DNA from: an uncultured delta proteobacterium
GTDB taxonomy: Bacteria > Desulfobacterota > Binatia > Binatales > Binataceae
Assembly (NCBI GenBank): GCA_963808235.1
Contig: CAWEEQ010000004.1
Location: 2,304,001-2,368,000, forward strand
Reading direction: 5' to 3'
DNA: 64,000 bases
The translations under genes and the position numbers were made by a program. Within the stretch, counting starts at the first letter, position 1. Each line of letters opens with the position of its first letter. Below the pieces are notes generated by a model, which did not search any database, had not been told where the DNA came from, and saw nothing but the letters and a program-made list of their open reading frames with translations. Below, in pieces: positions 24,721-35,404 of this stretch.

Positions 24721-24826
24721 CGTCTCTGAATCCCTGACTCAGACTCAGTTTATATGCGAATTGGCAATTTGATAGTGTGCTTGACGCCGCAATGGATTCA
24801 ACGCCGTGTAGTCAGGCAGGGGGACT

Positions 24827-25177
24827 ATGCTCGAAGAGCACAAATTCTTTACCGGGATGTTCGCATTCGGAGGTCGCGGGCTGGAAGAGCCGGTCAGCTT
24901 GGAGCCCAAGGCGGTCTATACAGTGCCACCGAACAAACGCGCGCAATTCATCTACGGACGGATCGGCAACCCGACGACCGAGTTTCTCTATGTGGCGCTC
25001 CAGCGCGACGGCAAATCGGTTCGTTTGTTCCCGTGCGGTCCGAAGAGCGGGATTACCGTACCGCTCGCGATCATCGATGACTGCCTGCCCGGCAGCATGG
25101 TCGAACTGAAGATCGCGGCGCCCGAGGGGCTCGCGGCGAAGGTGATGATAGACGTCGGCTTCGTGGAGTTCGAATGA
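24827..25177 (+). CDS. Small uncharacterised protein of the type seen next to assimilatory nitrate/nitrite reductase genes
   Basis: 116 aa, GGGGA RBS, ATGA-coupled to the next gene. The family assignment is from recollection. Confidence 0.7.
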   Translation: MLEEHKFFTGMFAFGGRGLEEPVSLEPKAVYTVPPNKRAQFIYGRIGNPTTEFLYVALQRDGKSVRLFPCGPKSGITVPLAIIDDCLPGSMVELKIAAPEGLAAKVMIDVGFVEFE

Positions 25178-27273
25178 AGAACAAGCGCAATCTGGTCGTG
25201 ATTGGCAACGGCATGGCGGGAGCGCGGACCGTGGAAGAGATTCTCGCCCGCGGCGGCGCCGAGATGTTCAACATCGCGATGTTCGGGGGCGAGCCGTTCG
25301 GAAACTACAACCGGATCATGTTGTCCGGGGTGCTTGACGGGTCTCACAAGGCGGCCGAAATCGTTCTCAATCCGCTCGCATGGTATGAGCAGAACCATAT
25401 CCGACTGCATGCGGGTGTTCGCGCCGCGCGGATCTTGCGCTTCGCCCGCCGCGTGCTCGGAGCCGACGGATCCGAAGAGTCATATGACAAGCTTATCATC
25501 GCGACCGGCAGCCGCTCCTTCATTCCGCCGATTCCCGGGTTGACGCAAAGCGACGGCGGCATGAAACCGGGCGTCTTCGGGTTTCGCTCGCTTGAAGATT
25601 GCCGACGGATGGCAGACTATGCGCACGGCAAAAAGCGCGCGGCGGTAATCGGCGGCGGTCTGCTCGGGCTTGAATGCGCGCACGGGCTGCAAAGCCTCGG
25701 CCTCGAAGTCCACGTCATGCATCGCTCGACCCACTTGATGAATCAACAGCTCGACCCTGCGGCCGGCGCGATCCTGCGGTCGCTGGTCGAAGAAAAGGGC
25801 ATCCGCGTGCATCTGGGGGCGGACACGGCCGCGGTCCTCGGGGACGAGCGCGTCAGCGGACTCGAATTCAAGAACGGCGAGACGCAAGAGTGCGAGCTGG
25901 TGGTCTTCGCCACCGGAATTCGGCCCAATGCCGAAATCGGGACCCAATGCGGCCTCACTGTCCAGCTTGCGATCGTGGTCAACAACCAGATGCGCAGCGA
26001 TGACGATCCGCACATCTACGCGGTCGGCGAGTGCGTGCAGCATCGCGGGCAGACCTACGGCCTGGTGGCGCCGATATGGGAACAGGCCAAGGTGCTCGCC
26101 GATCATATAACCGGAACCAATTCCAACGCGTCGTATTTCGGCTCCAAGATCGCGACCCGGCTCAAGGTCGCGGGCGTCGAGTTGGCCTCGATGGGACTGA
26201 CGGAGCCCGTCGAGGCGCGCGACGAGGTAGTGCAGTTTGCCGAACCGAAGCATGGGACCTACAAGAAGCTGATCATCCGCGACGGTCGCCTGATAGGCGG
26301 TATATTGCTCGGCGACAGTGGCAAGGCTGCCTACCTGCTGCATGCATTCGAGAGCGACGCGCAGCTGCCCGATGAACGAATCCATTTGCTGTTCGATATT
26401 GGCGCCGCGCCCAAACGAGTGACGCTCGATCAGATCCCGCTTGATGCGCAGATCTGCAATTGCGAGAAGATCAACAAGGGCGCGATCGTCGAATGCGTGA
26501 AGAGCGGTCTGCGCACGGTGGAAGAGGTAAAAGCGGCGACGCGCGCCGGTCTTGCATGCGGGTCGTGCGCGGCGATGGTCGGCGAGATCGTCGAGTGGGC
26601 GTGCGGCGGTCAAAATTCCGCGCCCGCTCAGGAAGAAGCGGAATTGCCGGGTTCGGATGGAGAGCATGAGCTACAGGACAAGTACGGCACGAGCTTCCAG
26701 GCACTCGCGTTCTACAACCATCGCGTGCTGGACCACCTGAATTCCGCGATGCAGGAATTCATCGTTCAGCAGGAAATGATGTTCGTCGGAACTGCGGACA
26801 GGAACGGGAACGCGGACGCCTCGTTCCGGGCGGGGCACGCGAACTTTGTTAAAGTGCTCGACCAACGAACCATCGCCTACCCGGAGTTTCGCGGCAACGG
26901 GGTGATGTCGAGCATGGGAAACATTTCGGAAAATCCGCACGTCGGGCTGATGTTCATCGATTTCGGGAAGGACCGGATCGGTCTGCACGTGAACGGAAGC
27001 GCACGCATCGTCGAGCACGACGAGTTCGTGCGATTGCTGGAGGCTCGTTCGGCCGCGAACGTTGTGCTCGGGGACTCGATGCTTACTGACCTGATCGCCA
27101 AGGATGCCGGCAACCTCGAGCGCTGGGTGATCGTTTCAGTCGACGAGGCATTCATGCACTGTTCCAAGCATATCCCGCTGATGAAGAAGGCCGACCTTGA
27201 AGTGAGTTGGGGAACCGACGACGTGAAGGCCAAAGGCGGAGATTACTTCGGCGCTGACCGAGTCGGGAAGTGA
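25174..27273 (+). CDS. NirB/NasB-like FAD/NAD(P)H oxidoreductase + BFD [2Fe-2S] fused to a pyridoxamine 5'-phosphate oxidase-like domain
   Basis: VIGNGMAG, YNRIMLS, GGGLLGLE, CNC..CGSC. Then SFRAG, YPEFRGNG, ENPHVGLMFIDF, HCSKHIP. Confidence 0.85.
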   Translation: MKNKRNLVVIGNGMAGARTVEEILARGGAEMFNIAMFGGEPFGNYNRIMLSGVLDGSHKAAEIVLNPLAWYEQNHIRLHAGVRAARILRFARRVLGADGSEESYDKLIIATGSRSFIPPIPGLTQSDGGMKPGVFGFRSLEDCRRMADYAHGKKRAAVIGGGLLGLECAHGLQSLGLEVHVMHRSTHLMNQQLDPAAGAILRSLVEEKGIRVHLGADTAAVLGDERVSGLEFKNGETQECELVVFATGIRPNAEIGTQCGLTVQLAIVVNNQMRSDDDPHIYAVGECVQHRGQTYGLVAPIWEQAKVLADHITGTNSNASYFGSKIATRLKVAGVELASMGLTEPVEARDEVVQFAEPKHGTYKKLIIRDGRLIGGILLGDSGKAAYLLHAFESDAQLPDERIHLLFDIGAAPKRVTLDQIPLDAQICNCEKINKGAIVECVKSGLRTVEEVKAATRAGLACGSCAAMVGEIVEWACGGQNSAPAQEEAELPGSDGEHELQDKYGTSFQALAFYNHRVLDHLNSAMQEFIVQQEMMFVGTADRNGNADASFRAGHANFVKVLDQRTIAYPEFRGNGVMSSMGNISENPHVGLMFIDFGKDRIGLHVNGSARIVEHDEFVRLLEARSAANVVLGDSMLTDLIAKDAGNLERWVIVSVDEAFMHCSKHIPLMKKADLEVSWGTDDVKAKGGDYFGADRVGK

Positions 27274-32000: not shown

Positions 32001-32127
32001 GTTGGGAATTTCGCGTCTCAAGTCAGGTTAAGGCCGTTACGAGTGAGGGTCAAGGAAGCGGTCGAGCGATGCGGACGGATGGTGGACATAGCACTGCGCC
32101 GCGGTTTTGCTATGTTTCGAGTTATCG

Positions 32128-33603
32128 ATGGAAAGCAGACTGTTCATCGCCGGACGCTATATCGATGCCGCCAAATCCTCGCGCTTCGCCGACGTCGAGC
32201 CTGCGACTGAGCGCGAACTCGCGCAAGTCGCGAGCGCCAGCGCCGACGACGTCAATCGCGCGGTCGTTGCGGCGCGCGAGGCTGCCGATCACGGCCCCTG
32301 GCCACGCATGAGCGCCGATACTCGCGCGGGAATCATTGGCAAGTTCGCCGACGGGATCGAAAAGCGCGCGCGGGAACTGGGCACGCTCGAGGCGCGCGAC
32401 GTCGGCAAGCCGGTCTCCGAGTGCGTCAATCACGACGTGTCGCGCGCGGCGCGCAATCTGCGCTTCTTTGCCGCCGCGGCGCAGACCTGGACTCATGAGG
32501 CGGCGCAAAGCGACGCGAAATTTCTCGGCCGCGATTTGAAGCTGGTGAACTTCACCGAGCGTCCTCCGGTCGGCGTCGGCGCGATCATCATTCCGTGGAA
32601 CTCGCCGCTGATGCTCGCGACGTGGAACCTGGGCCCCTGTCTGGCCGCGGGAAATAGCTGCGTGCTGAAGCCGTCGGAGCTGGCGCCGCTCACTTCGATT
32701 GCGCTCGGTGAGATCGCGAACGAAGCGGGACTGCCGCGCGGAGTGTTGAGCATCGTGCCGGGGCTCGGCGACGCAGGCGCTGCGCTGGTGTCGCATCCAG
32801 GCGTCGACGCGGTCGCGTTCACCGGCGGCGTCGAGACGGGGCGACTGCGTGATGGCAAGCGCGGCGACGACGCTCAAGCGCGTGATGCTCGAACTCGGCG
32901 GCAAGTCGCCCAACATAGTATTCGCCGACGCGAATCTGAAACGCACTGCCGCCGGAGTGGCGCGATCGATCTATCGCAGCCAGGGACAATCATGCGTAGC
33001 GGGCGCGCGATTGCTGGTCGAGAGCAGCGTCGCCGCGGAATTCATCGAATTGCTGATCGCCGAAATACCAAAACTGAAAATAGGCGACCCGCTGAAAGAC
33101 GACACCGAGTACGGCCCGCTCATCTCGGGGGCGCATCGTGAGCGCGTGCATGCGCTGGTCGCCGACGCGATCGCCAACGGCGCGAGCGTGCTGGCGGGCG
33201 GCAAGATTCCCGCCGAGCCCGCGACCGGTTTCTACTATATGCCCACGATTCTCGACGGCGTCGACGCGAAGTCGCGCGCCGCGTCCGAGGAAATATTCGG
33301 GCCGGTGCTGACTGTGGAGAGATTCGACGACGAAGAGCAGGCAATCGCGAGTGCGAACGCATCGCGCTACGGCCTCGCGGCTTACGTATGGACCTCGAAA
33401 TCGATCGCGCGCTCAGAGTCGCAAACTCACTCAAGACCGGGATGGTGTGGGTCAACAGTTTCTTCTTGCGCGATCTGCGGACTCCGTTCGGCGGCGCGAG
33501 GATGAGCGGACTCGGCCGGCAAGGCGGCCGCTTCAGCATGGAGTTCTGGACCGAGCCGAAACTTGTTTGTATCGCTTACGGTGAGGAGGAGCACGATGGG
33601 TAG
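32128..33603 (+). CDS. Aldehyde dehydrogenase, HpaE-like (two frameshifts, about 32848 and 33400)
   Basis: IPWNSP, KPSE, FTGG / ELGGKSP, GQSC, EEIFGPV / DLRTPFGG, spread over three frames. Confidence 0.85.
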
Positions 33604-34514: not shown

Positions 34515-35404
34515 TTGAAACTTGCACGCGGAATATTGGCGATGCTGGTGACGCCGTTTCATGATGATTATCGGCTGAATGAGGCGGCGCTCCGGAAAGA
34601 GGTGCAGTGGGCGATCGCAAGCGGCGCGCAGGGCGTGGTTGCGGCGCCGAGTATCGGCGAGTTCCTCCATATGAACGAAGCGGAACGTGCGAGAGTCTTC
34701 GAGATCGTCGTTGAAGAAGCGCGCAAGCATCCGAATGTCTCGACAGTCGCGATGACCTCGGGCGCGACGACGCTCGAAACGCTCCACTACGCGAAGATCG
34801 CCGCGCGACTCGGATACGACGCGCAGCAGGTGATCCCGCCCTACTACTGGCGATGCGGCGAGGCCGAAGTCGAGCGTCATTACAGGATGATCGCCGAGGC
34901 TGGCGATTTGCCGGTCGTCATCTACCACAATCCCGCGCTCAGCAAGTTCAACATCTCGCCGAAGTTTCGCGGGGAGACTCGCGACGATCGAGGGCGTCGT
35001 GGCATTCAAGGAAGTGCTGACCGATTTGCAGCATCTCGAGGCGCTCTACGACGAAGTGGACGGCCGCGCCGATATTTACAATACGTTTCGCGCGATGCTG
35101 GCCGGGTTGATGCTCGGAGCGGCCGGGCGGCTTCATCAACATTTTCGCGGTGCCGGCGTCGGTCGCATTGATGAAGGCCTTCAAGGCCGGCGATTACAAA
35201 CGCGCAGAGGAAATTCAGCGTCGTCTCAACCGATGCTTCCCGCGCGGTGGCGAGGAAACTCTGGGCCATCTCGGAACGACCAAAGTAACCGCCTCGGTAG
35301 CGACCGGAATCGAGATGGGTCCGGCGCGGCCGCCGTACATGGCGCCCGCGGACGCCGCGGAGCGAATCCGGAAACGCTTGCCGCTGCTCAACGAGGTCAT
35401 CTGA
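34515..35404 (+). CDS. DapA/DHDPS-family class I aldolase (frameshifts about 34967 and 35127)
   Basis: LVTPF, SIGEF, PPYY, IYHNP, Schiff-base K in AFKE, GPARPP. Confidence 0.8.

Follow-up and report, generated by a model that had tools for sequence, protein, structure and literature searches.

A putative NAD(P)H-dependent reductase composed of nitrate-assimilation components in an uncultured member of the Binatia

Introduction

In the NirB family, the path of electrons from NAD(P)H through FAD to a [2Fe-2S] cluster is established, and the protein continues beyond this front end into a siroheme-bearing half made up of NIR_SIR_ferr and NIR_SIR domains. NasB of Bacillus subtilis and NasC of Klebsiella are NirB-like flavoproteins that lack the siroheme domain and only feed electrons, with a NasA/NasC molybdoenzyme as their partner. 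Here, we describe a two-gene operon in a stretch of 64,000 nucleotides (nt) (hereafter, the window; GenBank assembly GCA_963808235.1, contig CAWEEQ010000004.1, forward-strand positions 2,304,001 to 2,368,000) from an uncultured soil delta proteobacterium of the Binataceae, class Binatia. One gene encodes a protein of 116 amino acids (aa), which we call protein X, and the other a 699-aa fusion protein in which a NirB-type diaphorase and a BFD-like [2Fe-2S] domain are joined to a PNPOx-like split barrel. We consider that this operon may encode a self-contained NAD(P)H-dependent reductase built from nitrate-assimilation parts and possibly directed at a nitrogen-oxide substrate, a reading to which we assign a probability of about one half.

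Compared with NirB (TIGR02374), the fusion protein has the same diaphorase, the same reductase C-terminal domain, and the same four-cysteine BFD domain, and in Skermanella, too, the X gene lies directly upstream. It differs in that a split barrel stands where NirB has its NIR_SIR_ferr/NIR_SIR half, and neither NirD nor nasA accompanies it. With NasB and NasC it shares the missing siroheme domain, but those diaphorases have a molybdoenzyme partner and no split barrel. A likeness in design can also be drawn to Hmp, NorW/NorV, and Bjgb-Flp, which combine an NAD(P)H flavoprotein reductase with a small acceptor, either joined or co-expressed; in those systems the acceptor is a globin or a flavodiiron protein, whereas here it would be a split barrel, and turnover of nitric oxide (NO) is hypothetical. 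As one report describes, Bradyrhizobium's narK-bjgb-flp-nasC operon co-expresses an NO-detoxifying hemoglobin and an FAD reductase (PMC4724949), and Bjgb-Flp sits in a narK-nasC setting, as do stand-alone relatives of the barrel presented below. No published study of the fusion architecture, of protein X, or of the function of TIGR04025 was found in the full-text literature, a corpus that leaves out most subscription journals, and the concern that the architecture might already have been characterized found no paper in its favor there.

Results

The two genes lie on the plus strand of the window at positions 24827..25177 (protein X) and 25174..27273 (fusion protein, stop codon included), and they overlap by 4 nt in the sequence ATGA, just as a preliminary description made from the DNA letters had stated. 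The 699-aa translation has zero internal stops. Its front part, a NirB-type FAD/NAD(P)H diaphorase encoded at 25189..26355 (+), consists of Pyr_redox_2 (residues 6-293, E 4e-52) and a reductase C-terminal domain (Rubredoxin_C, residues 327-394), and both of its GxGxxG motifs are invariant in 27 homologs. The BFD-like [2Fe-2S] domain follows at residues 427-474 (26452..26595, +; Fer2_BFD, E 2e-11); its CxC...CxxC ligands (C428, C430, C462, and C465) do not vary among 27 sequences, and it gives the only Fer2_BFD match in the whole genome. A linker of 12 residues (GQNSAPAQEEAE; residues 479-490; 26608..26643, +) then marks the point where NirB homology ends. This linker varies in length and sequence and is in frame in all homologs. 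The remainder of the protein is a PNPOx-like split-barrel domain (residues 491-699; 26644..27270, +).

The 699-aa protein is not a NirB, because the defining siroheme half was tested for and is absent. More specifically, Pfam found no NIR_SIR (siroheme/[4Fe-4S]) domain in the protein, and the NirB model TIGR02374 of NCBIfam was matched over positions 1-474 of 794 only, with 473.5 bits where the cut-off is 578.35. Skermanella NirB shares 59% identity with residues 4-493, the homology ending right after the BFD domain, and NirBs that do bear siroheme reach 64-73% identity (58% in one match) across the initial ~70% of the query. The N-terminal module also matches the NorW family of NCBIfam (E 2.8e-44). 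The protein is very likely to function as the front half of a NirB does. The layout set out earlier, with a diaphorase, a single BFD-like cluster, and a linker in one 699-aa frame and with the siroheme half missing, is thus upheld by the translation and by Pfam, and the suggested origin in nitrate assimilation has become stronger, given the similarity to Skermanella NirB and the identification of protein X as a nas part.

The split barrel, which had been described as an intact domain, was recovered by Pfam as PNPOx_N (residues 524-630, i.e., 26743-27063; E 4e-14), and the AlphaFold2 (AF2) model of the C-terminal domain is a split barrel with core pLDDT above 85 and disordered ends. The family is recognizable by the motifs LPGSDGEH, HCSKHIP, and WGTDD..KGGDYF, and His498, His605, His662, Cys663, and His666 are invariant. 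Among NCBIfam models, the FMN-dependent PPOX-type family TIGR04025 (MSMEG_1061/DR_2398) matched residues 514-625 over profile positions 14-124 of 197 with 90.6 bits. The fused barrel has a common fold with TIGR04025 and other PNPOx-like barrels, and C663 (C191 of the domain, on the HC-x-K strand) is invariant across all 18 aligned relatives and shared with TIGR04025-like ones; the fused barrel differs from TIGR04025 by its own motifs (LPGSDGEH, HCSKHIP, and KGGDYF), an insertion, and the fusion to a reductase. With E values of 1e-8 to 1e-5, Foldseek returned small PNPOx-like barrels whose ligand is FMN (the Desulfovibrio FMN-binding protein and YviC), heme (HupZ and HutZ), or F420. The C-terminal 227 aa gave PNPOx_N only, even at E up to 5, with neither a PdxH C-terminal segment nor a DUF2470/HugZ-type C-terminal part, and no PdxH model was among the best 25 of 59 NCBIfam matches. 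A PDB sequence search with the C-terminal domain returned no meaningful match (best E 0.75), and the ESM Atlas returned generic PNPOx-family clusters only.

A search of 5.8 billion proteins retrieved ~85 full-length homologs with the same domain set and 64-92% identity. Their sources are JGI, ENA, NCBI, and Logan. One bears the name Candidatus Binatus sp., and the public automatic names are FAD-dependent oxidoreductase or NirB/PNPOx. The junction (26600-26660), for which the possibility of an assembly chimera had been raised earlier, is not one, since it is crossed with 0 differences by contigs from sequencing runs of two different studies (run X1, record 6, 26477-26844; run X2, record 14, 26408-27003), the first of which may be the source sample. 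The ATGA overlap is crossed by contigs of three runs.

The gene pair is also stable in related genomes. The X gene is directly upstream of the fusion gene in all six genomes of related species that hold the fusion. When metagenomes were scanned with the C-terminal domain, 80 loci were kept. A complete fused open reading frame (ORF) of 680-735 aa is present in 15 of them, and the X gene is directly upstream in 15/15 of these; four more fused ORFs run off contig ends and were left out of the pair count. Apart from X and the fusion, the genome and metagenome loci have no neighbor in common. In comparisons with 12 relatives, pairwise dN/dS spans 0.05-0.28 in the X gene, 0.10-0.22 over residues 1-480, and 0.09-0.21 over residues 496-699, values that indicate purifying selection on X and on both ends of the fusion protein (N- and C-terminal parts) in 12/12 pairs. 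In a phylum-wide search with the C-terminal domain (401 genomes, including the present one), the fused form occurred in the present genome only, and the gene is therefore patchy; two genomes of the same genus have no match to the C-terminal domain. Tandem copies (two) of the X gene precede the fusion gene in two related genomes (L022 and L023) and in one metagenome locus (L057). Single damaged copies were also seen. One fusion copy (L024) has three frameshifts, and in L045:6047-7690 and L046:42-1253 the fusion gene has lost residues ~32-298, the FAD/NAD core, with the frame shifted; in this deletion variant, X is intact and 96% identical, and the locus lies on a 301-kb contig.

Protein X had been called uncharacterized, and this holds insofar as no Pfam or NCBIfam model was found for it; it no longer holds in that the protein is homologous to a component of nas operons, namely, the C-terminal tail of NasA and an ORF between nasA and nirB. 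Its AF2 model is all-beta (pLDDT 92) with a generic jelly-roll fold, and the structural matches are generic TNF/C1q, spore-appendage, and viral-capsid jelly rolls that give no functional lead (Foldseek best E 1.3e-3; VIA-align Z 8-9.6, a range that the tool calls common). A PDB sequence search found no meaningful match (best E 0.26). In an alignment of 16 sequences, E20, Y31, Y43, R45, N48, Y55, R66, D85, E93, and D109 are invariant.

A profile search of 1.84 billion representatives uncovered 238 proteins with the X domain at E up to 0.001. In a scan of 20 of the longer hits, the domain is behind Molydop_binding in 9, beside Pyr_redox_2 in 4, behind an extracytoplasmic function (ECF) sigma factor in 2, and behind a NarK-type major facilitator superfamily piece in 1, with nothing else in the remaining 4. 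By BLAST, X is joined to a NirB-like N-terminus in one ORF in 7/20 of the longer hits, these joined ORFs being contig-end fragments in which read-through is possible. A search restricted to proteins of 693-2000 aa found the X domain in 366 long proteins; the 120 of them that were listed are all molybdenum enzymes of 696-945 aa that contain Molybdopterin and Molydop_binding domains. Most of these bear the name assimilatory nitrate reductase catalytic subunit, and those with a named source are Actinomycetota. Over its whole length, X shares 39% identity (E 3e-25) with residues 751-864 of a Cellulomonas molybdenum enzyme of 865 aa, i.e., with the tail of the ~860-aa actinobacterial NasA, but in the present genome, which has no NasA, it is a free-standing protein.

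Free-standing versions are 43-47% identical and were found in 2 of 72,556 plasmid records, namely Skermanella sp. TT6 pTT6-1 (47%, E 3e-39) and a plasmid of Ca. Mycobacterium methanotrophicum (43%, E 2e-31), the identities of 39%, 47%, and 43% spanning ~110-114 residues. On both plasmids, the small ORF lies between nasA and nirB in the annotated order nasA, X, nirB, Rieske protein, with narK alongside. Given these occurrences in NasA tails and on plasmids, X followed by a nirB-type gene is the ancestral nas-operon order, and the window keeps exactly that pair. On the Ca. Mycobacterium methanotrophicum plasmid, a gene for a 133-aa PNPOx-family protein and one for a group 1 truncated hemoglobin lie just 5' of nasA-X-nirB (L042:5070-6053). 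Judged from the company its homologs keep, X could be a docking adaptor or a sensor; the fusions to NasA, NirB-like N-termini, the NarK-type piece, and ECF sigma factors fit both. Complex prediction with the 699-aa protein and X gave ipSAE 0.00 in two runs and is evidence neither way.

The assembly (4.59 Mb, 4 contigs, 93% complete) was searched for the remainder of a nitrate-assimilation system. Neither NasA nor NasC was found: the five ORFs scanned under six Molybdopterin matches reached at best 185.6 on the NasC model, against a cut-off of 1100, and the best tblastn match (33-35% identity) is an Fdh-like gene. The molybdoenzymes present are Fdh-, Qrc-, and NuoG-like, and none comes near the NasA or NasC cut-offs. 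There is no tblastn match to NarK and no match to a nitrate or nitrite transporter, and NirB similarity is confined to the 699-aa gene. NirD is missing from the neighborhood in the window and from the flanks of 23 fused loci, its only match in the genome being a weak one (32% identity) on another contig. Two NIR_SIR genes were found, one CysI-like and one NirA-like. The latter adjoins a PAPS reductase and an Rrf2 regulator; its position beside the PAPS reductase identifies it as a sulfite reductase, and it was rejected as a nitrite-reductase partner. We conclude that the genome has lost nitrate assimilation. A separate Fdh-alpha-like molybdoenzyme gene (G000:C4:1862229-1864136) is broken into a pair of ORFs, the match being interrupted by one TGA and one TAG, which may reflect selenocysteine plus a frameshift.

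The genome also encodes a stand-alone paralog of the barrel (268 aa, 64% identical to the fused domain), and the metagenome scan yielded 52 loci with stand-alone proteins that are 59-65% identical to the fused domain; seven further high-identity fragments cut by contig ends were left out. Identity across fused and stand-alone forms is 58-64%, all three motifs are common to both, and the stand-alone relatives score 97-99 bits on TIGR04025 (cut-off 170). Directly downstream of the stand-alone barrel, a NarK-like gene is present in 18 of those 38 loci whose downstream sequence reaches 800 nt or more. A NasC-like molybdoenzyme gene (~775 bits on the NasC model, cut-off 1100) comes next in 10 of the 21 loci with at least 3.5 kb, and it is followed by a DmsB-like 4Fe-4S protein (8/15 loci) and then a Rieske protein. 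No siroheme-type or NirB-type gene is present in the 52 loci (304 kb). In a quick maximum-likelihood tree, all fused domains form one group (SH-aLRT 88), and a nitrate-linked clade with 99% support holds 38 rows (25 linked, 8 not, and 5 unknown). The paralog in the present genome lies in an unresolved grade.

Three of these loci show the operon of barrel, NarK-type, NasC-like, DmsB-like, and Rieske genes (L103:501-6898, L116:852-7027, and L117:6842-13143). The NarK-type transporter is 769 aa long, and its C-terminal ~380 aa are extra His-containing transmembrane helices that end in a Cys4 motif; the NasC-like molybdoenzyme has 745 aa and scores below the NasC cut-off, and the Rieske protein has a Tat-like RRxF motif. 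With no nitrite reductase nearby, the operon looks like a quinol-fed NasC-type system. Elsewhere, the stand-alone barrel paralog lies near a second, different PNPOx_N gene, both in the present genome (G000:C4:1694822-1697467) and in two metagenome loci (L070:2365-4039 and L077:5763-7633), and in L070 and L077 a methylmalonyl-CoA mutase gene is upstream of this pair.

Discussion

We propose that NAD(P)H would deliver electrons to FAD and on to the BFD [2Fe-2S] cluster through the kept NirB front half, and that the split barrel, in place of the [4Fe-4S]/siroheme half, would take single electrons from the cluster. We regard this path into the barrel as probable, since the barrel immediately follows the cluster domain, separated from it by a short linker, and would thus be the next acceptor. 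The electron path and the self-contained reductase put forward in the preliminary description fit this anatomy. The barrel, presumably a dimer and most likely with FMN, would reduce a small oxidant, and protein X would partner the diaphorase module, serving as a docking adaptor or else as a ligand-sensing regulator. The domain layout, its conservation, the homologies, the gene linkage, and the lack of nas genes are shown by the sequence data, and from these we infer the path into the barrel, its cofactor, the binding of X, and the class of substrate. Our candidate for the substrate is a nitrogen-oxide species around nitrate/nitrite reduction (NO, nitrite, hydroxylamine, or a nitroso/nitro compound), in which case the enzyme would be a nitrosative-stress reductase with a design like that of flavohemoglobin or NorW/NorV. 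This substrate class is put forward tentatively. It is favored because each of the three building blocks is found in gene clusters for nitrate reductase, because X is nas-linked in other bacteria, about half of the stand-alone barrels head narK/nasC-like operons, and this genome has lost nitrate assimilation, and because NO reductase-plus-acceptor systems are reported to ride in such operons (PMC4724949).

As for the cofactor of the barrel, the predicted fold alone does not name it. We lean slightly toward FMN, after which the closest NCBIfam family is named, with heme as a possible but less favored choice and any other cofactor a little less favored again. F420 is an obligate two-electron carrier and a [2Fe-2S] cluster delivers single electrons, so FMN or heme is favored over F420, which had been offered earlier as an option and is chemically unlikely in this position; F420 proteins are among the fold matches at E ~1e-5.

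Several observations weigh against the proposal of a self-contained nitrogen-oxide reductase. The TIGR04025 score (90.6 bits) is below the cut-off of 170, and Foldseek ranks the heme-binding HupZ and HutZ level with FMN proteins. The organism has F420 biosynthesis genes (CofE, 244 bits; CofG, 457 bits) and 15 PNPOx_N matches. No nitrate gene occurs in the flanks of 23/23 fused loci. Likewise, only about half of the stand-alone loci are nitrate-reductase-linked, the others having mixed housekeeping neighbors (methylmalonyl-CoA mutase together with another PNPOx gene, SRAP, GST, and valyl-tRNA synthetase), and the quick tree places the fused domains with the non-linked grade, apart from the nitrate-linked clade; given this split, nitrate linkage may be a trait of one clade only. 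Protein X has no conserved Cys or His in the 16-sequence alignment and thus no obvious redox centre, and its domain also forms the C-terminus of the two ECF-type sigma factors (P0296 and P0331, 2/20 longer hits), which hints at a regulatory or sensing module. Lastly, three variants of 916-920 aa (P0070, P0076, and P0077) carry an extra ~220-aa C-terminal membrane domain with a conserved His, so the barrel may pass electrons on and may not be the final catalytic site. Pfam found nothing below E 0.008 on the membrane tail of the 920-aa variant; by predicted structure only, this tail resembles ferric-reductase-like proteins and cytochrome b/DUF4405 (TM 0.45-0.59), as well as the tails of other Pyr_redox_2+BFD proteins, and these are leads only. 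The 916-920-aa forms were also considered as X fusions, an idea that was rejected, as the added part is C-terminal and hydrophobic and has no similarity to X.

These membrane-tailed variants bear directly on one alternative, which we think possible but doubtful, in which the fusion protein is an NAD(P)H-driven one-electron donor for an unlinked enzyme. The barrel would then be flavodoxin-like, and X would dock an acceptor encoded elsewhere, as it would dock NasA to NirB. The continuation of these variants into a domain predicted to be cytochrome-b-like or ferric-reductase-like would suit a donor, as would the position of X on NasA in the 366 long proteins and between nasA and nirB, its joining to NirB-like N-termini in 7/20 longer hits, and the existence of barrels in nitrate-reductase operons without a reductase of their own (0 NirB-type hits in 52 loci). 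Nevertheless, neither a conserved third gene beside the pair nor a NasA-type partner in the genome was found, and the highly conserved His/Cys motifs of the barrel suit an active site more than a plain carrier. Those same residues (invariant His498, His605, His662, Cys663, and His666) could instead point to heme or iron handling, with a barrel that binds heme like HupZ, HutZ, and HugZ and with the diaphorase and BFD domain powering heme degradation or iron release. The top Foldseek matches do include HupZ (5esc; E 3.5e-8, TMq 0.44), HutZ (3tgv), and a putative heme oxygenase (1vl7), and BFD domains take their name from bacterioferritin-associated ferredoxin, which has a role in iron release. 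We nonetheless find this explanation improbable: the DUF2470/HugZ-type C-terminal part was not detected, the sequence models favor the FMN-type TIGR04025, no iron-uptake genes are near the gene pair, and both the nitrate-reductase linkage and X would be left unexplained.

Equally improbable, in our estimation, is a siroheme-independent nitrite (or hydroxylamine) reductase in which the barrel stands in for the siroheme half and the NirB substrate is kept. The exchange falls exactly where NirB has its catalytic half, X is retained, and the barrel-headed nitrate-reductase operons have no siroheme-type reductase in the 304 kb of the 52 loci, although contigs this short cannot prove that the genomes behind them lack a nitrite reductase. 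We know of no flavin or split-barrel nitrite reductase, which counts against the idea, as does the finding of no nitrate or nitrite transporter match in the genome. An artefact or relic, whether a chimeric assembly, the loss of a stop codon, or a nas operon in decay, has almost nothing to recommend it. It would account for the copy with three frameshifts (L024) and the two with the internal deletion of residues ~32-298 (L045 and L046), and damage is limited to these single copies; as a general explanation, it is refuted by the ~85 intact homologs, the pair in 15/15 and 6/6 loci, the dN/dS of 0.05-0.28, the independent contigs that bridge the junction, and the linker that is in frame everywhere.

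If the proposed self-contained reductase is real, it would be a natural modular rewiring of a well-known enzyme, in which the NADH-FAD-[2Fe-2S] front end of NirB was left nearly unchanged and the siroheme half was exchanged for a flavin-type barrel. Should the barrel act on NO, nitrite, or hydroxylamine, this would be a new enzyme type in soil nitrogen-oxide turnover among the widespread uncultured Binatia. Two components are newly recognized here. One is protein X, a predicted jelly-roll without a Pfam or NCBIfam model that occurs between or on NasA and NirB in many nas operons and may explain the coupling or regulation of these two enzymes. The other is a tight split-barrel family that heads an unusual class of nitrate-reductase operon. 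At its boldest, and with little confidence on our part, the proposal would have the barrel functionally replace the siroheme half, giving an NAD(P)H-driven nitrite/NO/hydroxylamine reductase, with X as the adaptor or sensor that couples NirB-type diaphorases to NasA in many Actinomycetota and some Alphaproteobacteria.

Upstream region and other features

Some 50 nt 5' of the start codon of the X gene is the motif TTTGATAGTGT (24768..24778, +; consensus TTTGATAGAGT), which is conserved in relatives: across 11/11 aligned upstream regions, TGATA never varies and the letters on either side of it hardly do. It occurs once in the window, where 0 occurrences are expected by chance, and is possibly an extended -10 or a regulator site. 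The upstream region has no Rfam match and no consensus sigma-70 promoter, and a scan for promoters and terminators gave nothing above chance. The operon is flanked by a divergent sulfatase gene on one side and a convergent GNAT gene on the other. These two, a metallo-beta-lactamase gene, and others are the neighbors within ~10 kb, with no molybdenum enzyme and no nirD among them, in agreement with what had been noted beforehand.

Farther along the window, an aromatic-catabolism cluster with LigB and HpaB contains two partial ORFs. The aldehyde dehydrogenase ORF at 32107-33141 covers Pfam positions 4-219 of 461 only, and the DHDPS-like ORF at 34515-35171 covers positions 3-146 of 289 only; these may be frameshifts or assembly indels. 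Elsewhere in the genome, an F420 biosynthesis cluster with CofE, CofG, and a CofH-like gene is located at G000:C4:1214287-1218133.

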